Source: a virus (Duplodnaviria > Heunggongvirae > Uroviricota > Caudoviricetes). From it: a DNA stretch of 34,937 nt. The stretch lies in the IMG/VR virus record IMGVR_UViG_2571042690_000022. One strand, given 5' to 3'. Position numbers and translations under genes: made by a program. The notes under the pieces were generated by a model that had not been told where the DNA came from, made no database searches, and saw only the letters and a list, made by a program, of their open reading frames with translations. Shown here in pieces: positions 3,843-11,927 of this stretch. How positions within the stretch are numbered: the first letter of the stretch is position 1; each line of letters begins with the position of its first letter.

Positions 3843-5009
3843 TTAAACCCCTTTGACAACGTCAGCGTTGACCTGTGGAACCCCGATTTCAGCGGCCAGA
3901 TTCATGGCGGCTATTACCAGGTTACTGACGGCCAGCGGATACAGCAGGCTGACCATATTTTTACGGTGACTTCCCGGATTGCTCAGGCGGGCACGTATGG
4001 CATCCACTGCACCGGCGTCCATAATGTCCGTCAGCTGTTTACCGGCCCGTTGCAGTTTGAACGTCAGAAATTCTTCAAGGTTATTGTCCAGAGGCAGAAG
4101 TTCGACCACCTCACAGCGCTGAACGACTTCACGGACTTCCATATTGCGTTCAGACAGTTTTGTCGCCAGTTCCGGCTGGCCAATCAGCACGATGGACAGC
4201 AGTTTTTTGAAACCGGACTCCAGCTCAAAAAAGCGTTTGAGGTGTTTCAGTGTCGGAATGGGCAGACTGTGGGCCTCCTCAATCACCAGAACGTGGCTGA
4301 ACCCCGCCTGGCTGCTGTCTTTCAGGACGCGATGCAACTGGCGAAAACGGGCGTCCTGACTGCGTCTGATGCTTTCCAGTGGTGCGATGGTACTGATAAT
4401 GGCTTCGGCAATAGCTGCTGCCTTCAGGGTTTTCCCTTTCACATCGTTGTCTTCCATAGCGATGATGTATGGCTCGATAACAATTACCGGCGCATTCTCG
4501 CGGTTGATACGTTCAGTCAGGTCGCGGCGCAGCGTGGATTTACCCGCACCGGACTCACCGATGACGGCCATAAACCCACCATGACGGGCTGTCTGGTACA
4601 GCGCCTCACGCACGTAGCGAATGTCCGGGGTGGTGAACACATCATCAGAACCCTGCATGGCTTCGTCGGCGAACGGGTCACGGAAAAGACCAAACGCTTT
4701 TTTGGTTGCTGGAAATAACACCTGTTTTTTGAGTAACATATTCTCTTCCTCACTGAGGCTCGTTTTATCTGTGGTACCCGCTGTACGGGGCGTGGCCGCG
4801 CCCTGTACAGCATCAAAACTCTTCGTTGTATCAATCCCCTGACTTTCCAGCCAGGACGCAAGACGCCGGCGCACTTCTCCGGGGCTGGTGCGGGGCCACG
4901 CGTTATGATTCACAATCTGGGCCAGCGTGGCCTCAGAAACATCGACAGCTCTCGCCACCACCGCCTGTGGAATACGGGCCTCTTTCAGTTGCTGCTTCAG
5001 TACCAGCAT
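3843..5009 (-). CDS. transposition ATPase (Mu B-like/TniB-like AAA+ protein)
   Basis: Walker A GESGAGKST, Walker B-like HVLVIEEAH, N-terminal HTH-like segment; start set to ATG 5009 (MLVLKQQ) with GAGGAGGG RBS; directly downstream of the transposase. Confidence 0.8.
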   Translation of the reverse strand: MLVLKQQLKEARIPQAVVARAVDVSEATLAQIVNHNAWPRTSPGEVRRRLASWLESQGIDTTKSFDAVQGAATPRTAGTTDKTSLSEEENMLLKKQVLFPATKKAFGLFRDPFADEAMQGSDDVFTTPDIRYVREALYQTARHGGFMAVIGESGAGKSTLRRDLTERINRENAPVIVIEPYIIAMEDNDVKGKTLKAAAIAEAIISTIAPLESIRRSQDARFRQLHRVLKDSSQAGFSHVLVIEEAHSLPIPTLKHLKRFFELESGFKKLLSIVLIGQPELATKLSERNMEVREVVQRCEVVELLPLDNNLEEFLTFKLQRAGKQLTDIMDAGAVDAIRARLSNPGSHRKNMVSLLYPLAVSNLVIAAMNLAAEIGVPQVNADVVKGV

Positions 5010-5019
5010 GTTTCCCTCC

Positions 5020-6789
5020 TCAGTTGCCGTTAACAATGCTGATAACACTGCTGCGGGCCGGTGTGGTCAGCGTGGCCATGACTTCATCCAGTGCGGCTTC
5101 CGGTACGCCGTCCGGGTACTGTGCCGTTAACTGGCGGTAATGTTCCGGCGTCCAGGTAAGGCCGTCGGCGCTGAACTTATCGCGCAGGGCTTTCGCGGCC
5201 TCCACATGAGTCATGGGACGTTGTTCAGTGCGCGGCCCGCGTACGTCAGAGGCCTGACCACGCTTCGGCATATAGGCCGGAAGTGTGGTGTCGTCGATAT
5301 GTTTATACGGGTCAAGCCGCCCGCCGAACGGCAGCGCCTTCGCCTTGCGTGCGGCGGCTGCATCTGCGGCGTTGTCTGTACCGGTAACCAGCGCTTCGGT
5401 TTCTTTTGCCGCCATCTGTGCCGGGGTTTCCGGCAGGGCTTTGTAACTTTCGCCAAATACCGCCGCGCCTTCAGCAAAGCCAAACTCGTTCTTTCTGACC
5501 TCTTCGACCAGGAAGAACGTCTCGTGGCCGTCCTCACCGGTCAGAACCACCTGTGCCACATCGCTGCGCCATGGGTTACGGGTAATCATCAGTTTTTCAC
5601 CAACCAGTACGCCCGGTACCGTTGATACGTCAAATTCAGTGCCCCGGAACGAGACACGAAGTTTTGGCGTGACTTTGCGGAGTTCTGGTGCCGCCACAGC
5701 CAGTTCACGACATACCTCAACGGAAGGCGCTTTTTTCAGCTGCTCAGCAGTAATCTTCAGCCAGATATCCGTGCGGGTTTTACCGTGGCGGCTGTGAACA
5801 GCCGTGGCGTTAAAGTGGCTGCGCCATTTCGCGGCCAGCGCGTTGAGTTCTTCCAGACTGTGAACCGGCCGGAACTTCAGACCCGGCTCCAGCTTGCGTT
5901 CGATAATGTCACGCGCCTTTTCCACCTGTCCGGTGGCGCGGGCGTTATGCGGCTTGTGCGCTATCAGGTCGATGCCCAGTGAGCGGCACATGTTTTTCGT
6001 CATACCCGCGGTGTTTGCCGAGCCGGGGTCGAGATAGAGTATTTTCGGCACGCCGTGCAGCACGTCTGCGCCGCCACGCTCCTGCATGGCGTTGATAAGC
6101 ACAGAACACAGGTTCTCACCTGATTCCGCGCCCGTCACATACTCAACGTAAATCCAGCCGCTGGCATGGTCGGTAATCTCGTAACTCCACACGCGGTCAC
6201 TGGCGATACGGGCAAGGTTAGCGGGCTTGTTCTTGTAGAACTTCGCGCTGTCCATCACCTGCAGCCCTTTATGTCCATTGCTCAGGTAGTAAAGCGTGCA
6301 GAGTGAGGCGTCAATCTGCCAGACATGATTGGGATGCAGACTGGCCACTTCGGTATGTGGTGCAGGGGCATCCAGTTGTTCCGGGTGCAGGCCATAGTTA
6401 CGCAGAGCACGGCTGATGGCATCTTCAGACAACGGGAAAAACTCACTGGTGGTTTCATCTGTTCTGCCTGCGGTGATAAAGCCGTTAGCCCGCAGGGTTT
6501 CCACTGCATCTGCGATGGAATAGAGACGCTTACCGTTCTTGCGGGTGGCCTCACGCAGTGTGGCAGATATCAGCGCGGCTTCGTCGCGGGTCAGGGCGCT
6601 GCGCCCGGCATCGGCGCGTTTTTTGCGTTTATCAGTCACAGATACCTCCTTCAGCCTGCGCAGCAGAGTGGCGCGGGACATGCCAAGTTCAGCACAGGCA
6701 GCGTCGTATATTGCACCGCGTTTACCATGCCCCGCGTCACGTGCCGCGCGGGCTGTTTCAACCAGTTTTTCAGTCAGTGCCGGGGTCAT
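5020..6789 (-). CDS. DDE transposase (Mu A-like)
   Basis: 589 aa; candidate DDE residues in WQIDAS, YLDPGS and GQVEKA; gene order ner-like, A, B as in transposable phages. Confidence 0.9.
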   Translation of the reverse strand: MTPALTEKLVETARAARDAGHGKRGAIYDAACAELGMSRATLLRRLKEVSVTDKRKKRADAGRSALTRDEAALISATLREATRKNGKRLYSIADAVETLRANGFITAGRTDETTSEFFPLSEDAISRALRNYGLHPEQLDAPAPHTEVASLHPNHVWQIDASLCTLYYLSNGHKGLQVMDSAKFYKNKPANLARIASDRVWSYEITDHASGWIYVEYVTGAESGENLCSVLINAMQERGGADVLHGVPKILYLDPGSANTAGMTKNMCRSLGIDLIAHKPHNARATGQVEKARDIIERKLEPGLKFRPVHSLEELNALAAKWRSHFNATAVHSRHGKTRTDIWLKITAEQLKKAPSVEVCRELAVAAPELRKVTPKLRVSFRGTEFDVSTVPGVLVGEKLMITRNPWRSDVAQVVLTGEDGHETFFLVEEVRKNEFGFAEGAAVFGESYKALPETPAQMAAKETEALVTGTDNAADAAAARKAKALPFGGRLDPYKHIDDTTLPAYMPKRGQASDVRGPRTEQRPMTHVEAAKALRDKFSADGLTWTPEHYRQLTAQYPDGVPEAALDEVMATLTTPARSSVISIVNGN

Positions 6790-7122: not shown

Positions 7123-8042
7123 TACTGCATATCCTCCGGTCGGTTGATTTCAGGTTCCGGTTCGGTCAGCCAGGCGGGGGCATCGTTACCCGATGGAGCG
7201 GCCTCAAGGTCAAACGTCTCACGTAATGCATGAACACTGCGTTCAATCTGGCAGACCAGACCGGCCATGAAATCTCTGGGGGTATCGATCATGTTTTTGG
7301 TGCAGTATTCACACAGGGTCTCAAAAACACTGGACAGCCGGACGGCGATAGCCGATTCGGCCTCAACCGCTAATGCCGTCACTTCCGCCCGCAATTTTTT
7401 CAGTTCTTCGTCTGGCGGCGGAGGTTGCAGGCGCGATTTCTTCTCCAGTTTTGTGGCCAGTTCGTTGATTTTTTCGTCCTTTCCGGCAAGCACCTGTTGC
7501 TGAGCTGCGTTGGTTTCGCGCGCTTCACGCAGGGCGGCCTTCAGTTCGCGGCTGGTCATGCGATCAATATCATCAAGCGTTGCACCGGCGACGGTTCCAC
7601 CATCAGCTAATGCGTCGAGTTCTTCGTCATCCAGAACCATCAGTTCATATAACTTGGTTTTTCCCAAAACGCTCAGCGCTGAGCGTTTTGGCTGTTCATC
7701 TCCATTGCCGAGAAATTTCACGCTGGCCTGCATCATGCGACGAGCTACCTGTGGTGCTAATCCGAGGTCGTTTTCCAGAATATTTGTGAAATCACCATGC
7801 GGTTCATTTTCTTTTAAGATGATCAGCCGCTTACCCGCTTCCAACATAGATTCAGCACTCTGCGCCATATAAAAACGTGCTTCGTGAACGATGCGTTCAC
7901 GTTCATAAGGCAGTCCATCACCAAACTGCTGCATGATCTCCATGCGATGCTGTGTCATGGCATTCAGGCTGACGTTGAGATCATCCGACAGCGGTACATC
8001 GGCGTTCAGTTCAGTGTTAATCGGTGATTTGGTACGTCCCAT
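7122..8042 (-). CDS. hypothetical early protein (possibly DUF3102-like)
   Basis: 306-aa ORF with AAGGAG RBS about 8 nt upstream of ATG 8042; predicted coiled-coil middle region; family assignment is a recollection only. Confidence 0.45.
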   Translation of the reverse strand: MGRTKSPINTELNADVPLSDDLNVSLNAMTQHRMEIMQQFGDGLPYERERIVHEARFYMAQSAESMLEAGKRLIILKENEPHGDFTNILENDLGLAPQVARRMMQASVKFLGNGDEQPKRSALSVLGKTKLYELMVLDDEELDALADGGTVAGATLDDIDRMTSRELKAALREARETNAAQQQVLAGKDEKINELATKLEKKSRLQPPPPDEELKKLRAEVTALAVEAESAIAVRLSSVFETLCEYCTKNMIDTPRDFMAGLVCQIERSVHALRETFDLEAAPSGNDAPAWLTEPEPEINRPEDMQ

Positions 8043-8695: not shown

Positions 8696-9052
8696 ATGAG
8701 CAAAGATATAGGAGAGCGCGTTATTTCTGTGAGGAAGAAAGCAGGGTTGAACCAGAGAGAATTTGCAGCTCGTTTAGGTATTTCTAATGGTGGTATCAGT
8801 CAGATTGAAAATGGAAAGGCGATGCCTGGAGGGGAGTTTCTGTTAAAGATGCATCAAGAGTTTAATGTTGATGTAAATTGGTTGCTCACTGGAATGAGCA
8901 CAGATGGTATGACTAGAAACCAGAATCAAATTTCCCCAGAAAAACAAAAACTAATAGATACTTTTGACGACATGACACCAGACCAACAACGCTCATTTCT
9001 TGAGATTGGGCGATTCTATACTCAGCCAAAACCAGGAAAAATCGCAGGCTGA
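8696..9052 (+). CDS. XRE-family HTH repressor (lysogeny repressor candidate)
   Basis: 118 aa; N-terminal HTH (LNQREFAARLGISNGGISQIENGK); divergent from the early operon; gene is markedly AT-rich relative to its neighbours; weak or no SD. Confidence 0.75.
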   Translation: MSKDIGERVISVRKKAGLNQREFAARLGISNGGISQIENGKAMPGGEFLLKMHQEFNVDVNWLLTGMSTDGMTRNQNQISPEKQKLIDTFDDMTPDQQRSFLEIGRFYTQPKPGKIAG

Positions 9053-9137: not shown

Positions 9138-9170
9138 ACCGGAAAGCATTGTGCTTTCCGGTTTTGTTTC
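9138..9170 (+). terminator. rho-independent terminator-like hairpin
   Basis: Stem ACCGGAAAGCA (9138-9148), loop TTG, stem TGCTTTCCGGT (9152-9162), then TTTGTTTC; lies between the convergent repressor and dam 3' ends. Confidence 0.5.
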
Positions 9171-9933
9171 AGAAGTTGCAGATTAGCAGTTCACGGCGCG
9201 GCGTGGGTTTACCCGCCAGACTGTAGTTGATATTCACTGTCTGTATGTTCAGTCCAGTGAACACCTCGCGCATCTGCGGGATGTCGTTCACCGAAATTAT
9301 CATTTTTCCTCTGATGCACCGGGCCAGCTCTGCCAGCCGCGAGTAGTTCCCTTCAGGAAAATCCACACCATAGCCTTCCGTACCCAGGTACGGTGGGTCG
9401 CAGTAGAACAGCGTGTGCGGACGATCATAACGCTCAATGCACTGTTGCCAGTCCATGTGTTCTATGACTGTTCTGGAAAGCCGCAGGTGTGCCGCTGACA
9501 GTTCTTCTTCAATACGTAGCAGGTTGAAGCGTGGCGGGGATGTGGTGGAGGTACCGAAGCTGTGCTCTGCCACCTTGCCGCCAAACGCCTGCTTCTGAAG
9601 GTAGTAGAACCGTGCCGCACGCTGGATATCCGTCAGTGTTTCTTCCGGGGTGATCTGCAGCCATTTGTAGATCTGACGGCTGACCAGCGCCCATTTGAAC
9701 TGGCGGACAAATTCTTCCAGGTGATGCTTTACCACCCGGTACAGATTCACCAGTTCACCGTTGATATCATTGATGACTTCGATCTTGCCGGGTGTCTTAA
9801 GAAAATAGAGCGCTGCTGCCCCACAAAACGGCTCCACATAACATTCATGCGCCGGAAACAGCGGCAGAATGTGTTTTGCAAGGCGGCGTTTGCCACCAAT
9901 CCACGGCACGATGGGTAATGTCTGCATTTTCAT
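9169..9933 (-). CDS. dam: Dam-family DNA N6-adenine methyltransferase (orphan, no cognate endonuclease seen)
   Basis: WIGGK, YVEPFCGAAALYF, INDINGELVNLY and FYCDPPY match E. coli Dam motifs as recalled; start set at ATG 9933 (MKMQTLPIV) rather than the ORF-track start at 10023. Confidence 0.85.
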   Translation of the reverse strand: MKMQTLPIVPWIGGKRRLAKHILPLFPAHECYVEPFCGAAALYFLKTPGKIEVINDINGELVNLYRVVKHHLEEFVRQFKWALVSRQIYKWLQITPEETLTDIQRAARFYYLQKQAFGGKVAEHSFGTSTTSPPRFNLLRIEEELSAAHLRLSRTVIEHMDWQQCIERYDRPHTLFYCDPPYLGTEGYGVDFPEGNYSRLAELARCIRGKMIISVNDIPQMREVFTGLNIQTVNINYSLAGKPTPRRELLICNF

Positions 9934-10038
9934 AATCTGCAAGCCTTTTACAATTATTAAAAAATATGGCAGTCTGGTCAGGTCTCGCGAGACTGACTGA
10001 ACCTTGGTCGGCTCACAGCGCATTCCTGTGGGGCGATG

Positions 10039-10123: not shown

Positions 10124-10339
10124 TTATCCGGGGCGATTTTCTGACCTTATCCGGTCCAGGGCATAAGTAATACCTTCTGCAAAAACAGAAGTATCAAACT
10201 GCTTTTGTATTCCCTGAAAATGAAAAGCGGCACGACAGACACTCAGTTCTCCGCGGTATAACCGGATAATATCTTCCAGAACATTGTTCACTGCTTCAGC
10301 ACGGCGCTGATGTTCTGTTAACGTTAATCGGGGATTCAT
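10124..10339 (-). CDS. hypothetical small protein (71 aa)
   Basis: ORF with strong AAGGAG RBS 7 nt upstream of ATG 10339; lies in an AT-rich patch; start codon overlaps head-to-head with the 10338 plus-strand ORF. Confidence 0.35.
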   Translation of the reverse strand: MNPRLTLTEHQRRAEAVNNVLEDIIRLYRGELSVCRAAFHFQGIQKQFDTSVFAEGITYALDRIRSENRPG

Positions 10340-10742
10340 GATGCACTCCTTAAATGATGATTTTTATGTACTCACCGGCAAAATATTCTGCCGATTACTG
10401 AACACGCATCCGGCACCTCAGGTTTTGATTTATTCTGGTTTTTTCGATATCCCGGACCAGGTTGATCACGACCAGAAAAAGTGCCGGTGTTTTATTGATA
10501 CGCTGATATGGCTTCGGGATAACAGCTATATTCGTTACTCTCAGTTGCTGGCTGTGGGAGCGGCTGATGTCGTCCTCACGGAAAAAACGCTCTGTCTGCT
10601 CAATGCCATGCCGACCTTTCTGCAGCCCCGGCCCGTACCATTTAAAGAGTCACTTCTGGATGCAGTAAAAACCGGTGAAAATGCAGTCATCGCTGAATGC
10701 GTATCCCGGATTATGCGTTACGTGTTTAATGAACGTAAGTGA
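10338..10742 (+). CDS. hypothetical protein (134 aa)
   Basis: Long ORF in AT-rich DNA where chance ORFs are rarer; GGGGA 4-8 nt upstream of tandem ATGs; fills the only gap lacking a minus-strand ORF; reality uncertain. Confidence 0.35.
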   Translation: MMHSLNDDFYVLTGKIFCRLLNTHPAPQVLIYSGFFDIPDQVDHDQKKCRCFIDTLIWLRDNSYIRYSQLLAVGAADVVLTEKTLCLLNAMPTFLQPRPVPFKESLLDAVKTGENAVIAECVSRIMRYVFNERK

Positions 10743-11446
10743 GGTTTATCCGCTGTCTGCATAATCCCGATAGCCAGTGCGAGGGGAAGTAATTCCGGGG
10801 AAACTCTTTCAAACAGCGATGCCCATTCTCCTCTCGCCATCACTCTGTCCAGCCCGCCCTCCAGTTGCATTTCAGCAATCTTCCTGATTTCCCGGAACAA
10901 CGCCGCTTTGATCTCTTCATGCTCAGCTTTATTTTCCGGTGTCAGAAGGTATTCGTCGAAGAACCGGGGAGGCTGGTTAATCGGGATGTGTTCCTGTTTG
11001 CCGTACTTCGGGGACGAACAACATTCTGTTGACTGACCAGTGAGTTTACGTAACTCCTTCATGAGCAGCTCCTGATCGTAAACTGTCATCAGTGCCGCAA
11101 TGGTGGCATGCAGTGCATCGGGCAGTATCCAGGGTTGCCGGCCCGTGGGGCATATAACATCCAGCAGCTCATTCGTCCGACAGATACGCTCCTCGCCGTA
11201 TGACAACAGGCCCTGTCCCGTGTATTCCTCCAGCCTGATCACTGTGCCAGCCCGTGGTTTCTGCCATGTGCTCAGATCATCCCCACTCATACGGCGCTCA
11301 CCGTCCACGTCTGCGGCGTCGACAATGACGCTGTTTCCGAATTCCTGTTTCACCACTTCCTCTATTCGCGCCAGTACGTAACTTTTACCGCTGCCCACAG
11401 GACCGGACACGGTGACAGTGATGACCGGATTCAGTGTCTGCGTCAT
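10718..11446 (-). CDS. P-loop NTPase/kinase-like protein of unknown function
   Basis: 242 aa; Walker A GPVGSGKS at residues 16-23, then hydrophobic strand plus acidic segment SVIVDAADVDGERR; GAGGAG RBS upstream of ATG 11446; divergent from the late lysis operon. Confidence 0.55.
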   Translation of the reverse strand: MTQTLNPVITVTVSGPVGSGKSYVLARIEEVVKQEFGNSVIVDAADVDGERRMSGDDLSTWQKPRAGTVIRLEEYTGQGLLSYGEERICRTNELLDVICPTGRQPWILPDALHATIAALMTVYDQELLMKELRKLTGQSTECCSSPKYGKQEHIPINQPPRFFDEYLLTPENKAEHEEIKAALFREIRKIAEMQLEGGLDRVMARGEWASLFERVSPELLPLALAIGIMQTADKPHLRSLNT

Positions 11447-11508
11447 ATCGTATTCTCCTCTGTGAATAATTCATCGTTTATCCTGCACATCCCGTATCCC
11501 CGGCTCTC

Positions 11509-11526
11509 TTAACGCGCTTTAAAATC
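11509..11526 (+). promoter_or_regulatory. late-promoter motif copy 1 (TTAACGCGCTTTAAAATC) upstream of lysis genes
   Basis: One of four copies of TTAA-N6-TTAAWATC, each in a late intergenic gap 32-56 nt before a start codon. Confidence 0.45.
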
Positions 11527-11576
11527 CTTCGCGCCCTGTATTTGTGATGCTGTCTCCACCAGATAAGGAGACACAC

Positions 11577-11927
11577 ATGAAAAACCTGAAAAAATTCATT
11601 CCCCCTGTTAAAAAACCTCGCCTCAGCGGCTGGCTGCTGACCTCAGTGCTGTTGCTGGGCACCATCGCTCTGGTCTCACCACAGCAGCTGCCTGTTGTGA
11701 TCTACAAGCTGGCACTCATCACGCTGGCAGCAGTGCTGGGTTACTGGCTTGACCGTTCGCTCTTCCCCAAAGCCCGTCCCGGTCAGTACCTGAAACATGA
11801 CGACAGGCTGATGGCTGAAGGGCGTTTCCCGGTACAGACCGGCCTTCACCTGGTGTTTTCTGCTGCGTTAATCCGCCGTGCACTGATTGTTGCAGCGGTC
11901 TGCCTGGCTGTTGCGATGGGGCTTTAA
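11577..11927 (+). CDS. holin-like membrane protein
   Basis: 116 aa from ATG 11577 with AAGGAG RBS 7 nt upstream; 2-3 predicted TM helices; immediately precedes the endolysin. Confidence 0.5.
   Translation: MKNLKKFIPPVKKPRLSGWLLTSVLLLGTIALVSPQQLPVVIYKLALITLAAVLGYWLDRSLFPKARPGQYLKHDDRLMAEGRFPVQTGLHLVFSAALIRRALIVAAVCLAVAMGL

Follow-up and report, generated by a model that had tools for sequence, protein, structure and literature searches.

The DNA window analysed here is the whole 34,937-nucleotide stretch of IMG/VR virus record IMGVR_UViG_2571042690_000022 (Caudoviricetes). It shares 100% identity with Escherichia phage PhiKM (PQ738613), a BcepMu-like (Mu-like) transposable phage of the genus Bcepmuvirus. 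Next to the holin gene, on the opposite strand, lies a gene for a 242-residue protein that features a Walker A motif (P-loop) near its NH2 terminus and is labelled as a hypothetical protein in both GenBank and RefSeq. The gene, the modules of its product and the surrounding features are listed in Table 1. The open reading frame (ORF) starts at the first ATG past an in-frame stop codon, and an AGGAG Shine-Dalgarno sequence is located 8 nt 5' of the start, at positions 11455-11459. Among E. coli alleles, the ratio of non-synonymous to synonymous substitution rates (dN/dS) is about 0.24 for the whole ORF, and 0.28, 0.19 and 0.22 for its N-terminal, middle and C-terminal thirds, respectively, which indicates that the ORF is under purifying selection along its entire length. 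This is a real gene. Of 5426 complete E. coli genomes, 584 carry the 1.5-kb segment around it, in every case on the chromosome; EC958 (ST131) and ABU 83972 are among them. The P-loop protein is encoded in just one of 50,697 phage records. No relevant literature on PhiKM, WP_000194951, phrog_3787 or the BcepMu context was found.

Table 1. The P-loop gene, the modules of its product and neighbouring features; coordinates are those of the window (aa, amino acids; pLDDT, predicted local distance difference test; AF2, AlphaFold2).
Feature	Coordinates	Strand	Remarks
Complete ORF, 242 aa plus stop	10718..11446	-	PhiKM XRL29432.1; RefSeq WP_000194951 in EC958; member of phrog_3787
N-terminal mini P-loop module, residues 1-78	11213..11446	-	AF2 model pLDDT 84
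Walker A GPVGSGKS, residues 15-22	11381..11404	-	G20 and K21 in 83/83; S/T22 in 82/83
SVIVDAADVDGERR, residues 39-52	11291..11332	-	String of the preliminary description; D43 variable; D46, E50 and R51 conserved
Strand 3, TVIRLEE, residues 68-74, E74 at its end	11225..11245	-	E74 in 80/83
Middle cassette, residues 79-136, including WILPDALHATIAALMTVYDQELLMKELRKL	11039..11212	-	Occurs also on proteins lacking a P-loop
C-terminal cassette, residues 137-242	10721..11038	-	Missing from 141- and 158-aa alleles; other modules in relatives of 140-364 aa
Divergent holin/P-loop intergenic region	11447..11543	.	Shine-Dalgarno 11455-11459; motifs conserved in six diverged phages
Holin, first gene of the lysis and late operon, divergent from the P-loop gene	11544..11927	+	
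Convergent 134-aa gene (phrog_2266), 25-nt overlap with the 3' end of the P-loop gene	10338..10742	+	Dispensable neighbour
Downstream 71-aa gene (phrog_4490)	10124..10339	-	Co-occurs only with the 242/247-aa allele
Dam-type DNA adenine methylase, distal gene on the strand of the P-loop gene	9169..10023	-	

Beyond close relatives, conservation is confined to the N-terminal module (residues 1-75), in which strand 1, the Walker A motif, helix 1, strand 2, a short helix, a loop and strand 3 follow one another. A word-indexed search retrieved relatives from E. coli only, at least 76% identical, including alleles of 247, 158 and 141 residues and an internally deleted allele of 182 residues. An exhaustive HMMER search of 1.84 billion representatives yielded 63 relatives, the length of which ranges from 74 to 364 residues, and which have only positions 1-75 in common; the final profile search identified 276 clusters with the mini P-loop module. 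Most family members are stand-alone proteins of 71-90 residues, whose chain stops just past strand 3. Of the 61 family sequences fetched, 55 fall below 100 residues, with a median near 78. Given this majority of short proteins, the family is chiefly one of small proteins that stand alone; in the PhiKM protein, consequently, the mini P-loop module is fused to extra cassettes. The full-length AF2 model, built from a shallow E. coli alignment, is unusable (pLDDT 45). The whole protein matches phrog_3787 (E = 5e-170), and stand-alone homologues match positions 5-76 of this profile, which models the 242-residue E. coli form and is annotated with neither a function nor a domain. The gene is therefore not new, since its family is already an unannotated PHROG; what is new, within a kind already known, is the view of it as a P-loop unit of some 70 residues that can stand alone or bear C-termini open to exchange.

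A preliminary description of this DNA, made from the sequence without database searches, had placed the Walker A motif at residues 16-23; the motif is present, but spans residues 15-22. The bare [AG]x4GK[ST] pattern is not significant, as it occurs 4 times in the six-frame translation of the window against 3.6 expected matches. The motif is regarded as significant because it is conserved in relatives: the GxxxxGK[ST] sequence sits between a beta-strand and an alpha-helix and is retained in homologues. In 83 non-redundant domains of relatives, which are 25-55% identical overall, K21 is found in 83 and S/T22 in 82, while the P-loop glycines G15, G18 and G20 are found in 81, 72 and 83, respectively. 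Outside the P-loop, I28 (81), E74 (80), E50 (78) and P64 (74) are highly conserved, D/E46 and R/K51 are each kept in 64 domains, and W61 in 47. We infer that E74 acts as a Walker-B-like carboxylate. In one subgroup, the Walker A motif is replaced by GAExxGKN, and G18, S22, D46 and E50 are jointly lost while the rest of the module is kept; this joint loss suggests that the four residues make up a single site.

The module has in common with P-loop NTPases a hydrophobic strand, a GxxGxGK[ST] motif, an amphipathic helix, a second strand and a carboxylate that ends a later strand. However, the conserved unit comprises about 70 residues and three strands, whereas full-size P-loop enzymes have at least 140 residues and five strands. 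Profile matches in Pfam, NCBIfam, PADLOC and the PDB cover the strand-P-loop-helix segment only, sometimes together with strand 2, and are scattered over dozens of unrelated families, such as ABC transporters, CMP and uridine kinases, UreG, EF-Tu, PilT and two designed P-loop proteins. No family in these searches approaches its curated threshold, and profile and fold searches place the protein neither in the polynucleotide kinase (PNK)/zeta group nor in any other P-loop family; no fold neighbour was found in the PDB. The nearest natural sequence matches are CMP kinase (1q3t), uridine-cytidine kinase 2 and ABC nucleotide-binding domains. RefSeq names the 141- and 158-residue alleles ABC transporter ATPase, an assignment that we rejected: the ABC_tran match is below the cut-off and limited to positions 7-51, and the sequence features no LSGGQ. 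The designed proteins 6c2u ("phosphate-loop protein") and 9jix (de novo ATPase PL2x4_2), which are comparable in size and have the same strand-P-loop-helix arrangement, are among the best PDB sequence matches (E = 5e-4), the 9jix alignment spanning positions 4-54. As both are artificial consensus designs, the match reflects generic P-loop features; the mini P-loop family, in contrast, is natural and phage-borne. The weak but recurring similarity to nucleoside and nucleotide kinases, together with the conserved acids after strand 2, makes a distant kinase-class ancestry possible.

Downstream of the module, the proteins diverge. The preliminary description had stated that the C-terminal 150 residues match nothing recognisable, and this was borne out: a search of the PDB with the C-terminal 164 residues gave no sequence match at E <= 10, and there is none in Pfam or NCBIfam either. 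The C-terminal part, about 165 residues long, is predicted to be helical at low confidence. The 141-residue allele consists of the module and a "WxLPDAxHAxIAAL...ELRK" cassette, which is also present on proteins lacking a P-loop (P0059 and P0060). In the 242- and 247-residue alleles another cassette is added; it terminates in a "DxVxxRxxW" motif and is common to a few relatives. Other enterobacterial relatives, 88, 140, 287, 291 and up to 364 residues long, have very different C-termini, and a "LDPLEQAI...HLDxLL" domain is found in a Pseudomonas-type subfamily of 160-170 residues. The C-terminal part is made of cassettes that are swapped among enterobacterial prophages.

The position of the gene is more stable than the make-up of its product. 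In every BcepMu-like enterobacterial locus recovered via the P-loop module, the P-loop gene lies next to the holin gene and points away from it, and this slot is kept even where the holin and SLT are only 64-75% identical. Across these loci, identity in the N-terminal module falls to 35-58%, the downstream content is variable, and proteins of 88, 140, 141, 158, 242/247, 287 and 291 residues occupy the slot. The related phage KP12 lacks the gene. The intergenic region that separates the holin and P-loop genes measures about 100-130 bp. On the strand of the P-loop gene, the GCAGGAT (11482-11488) and TTTTAAAGCGC..TTA (11509-11525) motifs in this region show no or almost no variation among six diverged phages. 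Upstream of the P-loop gene, the region yielded no sigma-70 consensus promoter, and the two motifs may therefore be activator-dependent late promoter elements.

The genes downstream of the P-loop gene vary. The convergent 134-residue gene is annotated in RefSeq and missing from the GenBank annotation of PhiKM. In three loci (L005, L028 and L031) it is cut to 18 codons beside an intact P-loop gene, and hence is not an obligatory partner. In another locus (L029, 6439-7924), a paralogue with 27% identity is found on the opposite strand, inside a split and partly duplicated dam gene; the gene behaves like a small mobile cassette. In the window, a strong hairpin at 9138-9162 (11 bp, 6 GC pairs), followed by a run of T residues, is located between dam and a convergent repressor-like helix-turn-helix (HTH) gene (8696-9052, plus strand), and looks like a terminator that parts the HTH and dam transcription units. 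The E. coli prophages carrying the 158-residue allele (L004 and L033-L038) lack the dam, 71-residue and 134-residue genes; in L004, these are replaced, according to the annotation, by a block on the opposite strand that includes an HTH gene, a 328-residue gene and a 193-residue gene. This replaced gene content marks the slot as a hotspot of cargo exchange. A second Walker A match in the window, GESGAGKS (motif start 4559), belongs to ORF 3843-5048 (minus strand), downstream of the transposase, which from position alone we would guess to be a candidate MuB-like transposition ATPase. The remaining matches to the pattern, at 7679 and 31903, look like chance.

The balance of this evidence tips, by a modest degree, towards the protein being a modular accessory protein of BcepMu-like transposable prophages, built of a mini P-loop nucleotide-binding core (residues 1-75) and exchangeable cassettes. 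In such a core, K21 and S22 would hold the phosphates of a nucleoside triphosphate (NTP) and Mg2+, E74, at the tip of strand 3, would serve as the Walker-B carboxylate, and D46, E50 and R51 would complete the site. Every full-size NTPase has additional strands on either side of the one that leads into the P-loop; the module seems to have none of these, and hence probably acts on a partner protein or as a homo-oligomer. The C-terminal cassettes, exchanged by recombination, would probably set partner specificity. A bolder proposal, tentative and in our opinion rather doubtful as a whole, is that some 70 residues suffice here for a natural P-loop protein that stands on its own. No smaller P-loop unit that binds nucleotides would then be known; this one would be widespread in phages (more than 276 clusters), oligomeric and of a fold new to the PDB, and fused to swappable partner-binding cassettes in enterobacterial Mu-like prophages. 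As to the biological role, we rank a late or packaging-proximal accessory function, a function in conflicts and something else about equally; a kinase or a toxin is unlikely.

Outside BcepMu-like phages, the P-loop gene maps at most 1.5 kb upstream of an HNH, small terminase (TerS) or large terminase (TerL) gene, on the same strand, in 21 of 38 loci. These terminase-proximal loci come from about five independent lineages, which differ in terminase type, and in a neighbour census of 145 non-redundant proteins the HNH and small terminase families rank first. In genomic context, the strongest regularity is that the gene stands at the start of the late or DNA-packaging region. This position would fit a late-stage accessory for DNA packaging or the late operon, for instance an NTP-dependent helper of HNH/terminase or a factor in late timing. 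Moreover, the stop and start codons of the P-loop gene overlap those of its neighbours, which places the gene inside operons, and in BcepMu-like phages the gene abuts the lysis and packaging operon. However, it lies on the strand opposite to the late operon in PhiKM, homologues in lytic phages are not near terminase genes, KP12 does without it, and the junction preceding the terminase genes is a generic hotspot of accessory genes. We consider a packaging or late-operon role improbable on present evidence, though a serious candidate. In the subfamily of 160-170 residues (module plus "LDPLEQAI...HLDxLLxxQL"; loci L057-L071 and L076), the gene is located directly upstream of HNH-TerS-TerL in related siphovirus-like contigs, and is accompanied by conserved unannotated neighbours of about 305 and about 70 residues.

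To the same low degree we would credit a conflict gene, which might act in anti-defence, for example by sequestering a nucleotide signal, or in prophage exclusion, with a C-terminus varied by an arms race. The mosaic and rapidly swapped C-terminus, the presence of a Dam methylase gene on the same strand, and the Acb2/Tad1, Sequestin and Lar genes near the P-loop gene in several phages are all consistent with this role. However, such neighbours occur in few loci, and accessory regions are rich in genes of this kind anyway. PADLOC defence models gave no significant match, the best (E = 0.003) being restricted to the P-loop region of Csx3-AAA, and the gene is embedded in operons rather than being an autonomous moron.

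A role in lysis was hinted at by the adjacency to the holin gene, by a Yersinia prophage in which its start codon overlaps the stop codon of LysC, and by one fusion to a PG_binding_1 domain. This reading was not adopted, as most homologues are not beside lysis genes and the fusion is limited to a single 2.9-kb contig. The fusion protein, metagenomic P0080 (L050, 1919-2398), carries the PG_binding_1 domain (E = 5e-15) together with the mini P-loop module, and the neighbouring genes on its contig have no annotation. A role as a toxin, also raised in the preliminary description, is unlikely: the gene has no obligatory antitoxin-like partner and is intact in hundreds of E. coli genomes. A toxin-antitoxin pair with the 134-residue gene was likewise discarded, as the two genes converge and some loci have lost the 134-residue gene while retaining an intact P-loop gene.

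The main proposal of the preliminary description was a kinase of the PNK/zeta-toxin type, active on nucleic-acid ends, nucleotides or a cell-wall precursor, with D43 as the catalytic base. The SVIVDAADVDGERR string on which it was based, which the description had placed about 25 residues after the Walker A motif, is present and begins 17 residues past the motif; D43 is 22 residues past K21. The likeness to T4 polynucleotide kinase and zeta toxin (PezT) lies in this Asp residue, which ends strand 2 about 22 residues past the Walker A motif, within the string VIVDAAD. D43 is invariant within the enterobacterial subgroup, the top natural PDB and NCBIfam matches are nucleoside and nucleotide kinases, although over the P-loop only, and in three lytic phages the gene is found among nucleotide-metabolism genes (between thymidylate synthase and dihydrofolate reductase, near dCTP deaminase, or near dATP/dGTP pyrophosphohydrolase). 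Of the proposed layout of P-loop and catalytic Asp/Arg residues, the P-loop holds, and so do D/E46, E50 and R/K51. D43, in contrast, is variable, being Asp in 8 and Glu in 14 of the 83 relatives, and so fails the test of a conserved catalytic Asp that the description had set for itself. The Pfam match to Zeta_toxin (E = 0.15, 12 bits against a cut-off of 22.3) covers residues 7-46 only and is one of 83 unrelated P-loop families that match the same stretch equally weakly. Of 35 relatives, 13 match Zeta_toxin (best E 1e-3), a result that does not surpass those of AAA_22, AAA_16, AAA_30 or ABC_tran, and AAA_33 is not among the Pfam families returned. Unlike the T4 PNK and PezT kinases, the family has no conserved lid, second Arg motif or substrate-binding region; its complete members, at 71-90 residues, are too short for a five-stranded sheet, a lid and substrate-binding parts. 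Since the profile match is weak and generic, D43 variable, the core only about 70 residues long and the C-terminus exchangeable, we regard a PNK/zeta-type kinase as very improbable.

As it stands, the PhiKM protein is the product of an uncharacterised accessory gene, and the idea of a kinase or toxin is without support. The prophage allele is found in about 11% of complete E. coli genomes, so that a role in packaging, lysis timing or conflict would bear on a very common prophage. How the most abundant enzyme fold arose has been modelled with "P-loop prototype" peptides made in the laboratory. Should the 70-residue module bind or hydrolyse nucleotides, these peptides would have in it a natural counterpart, and many phages an uncharacterised small component.
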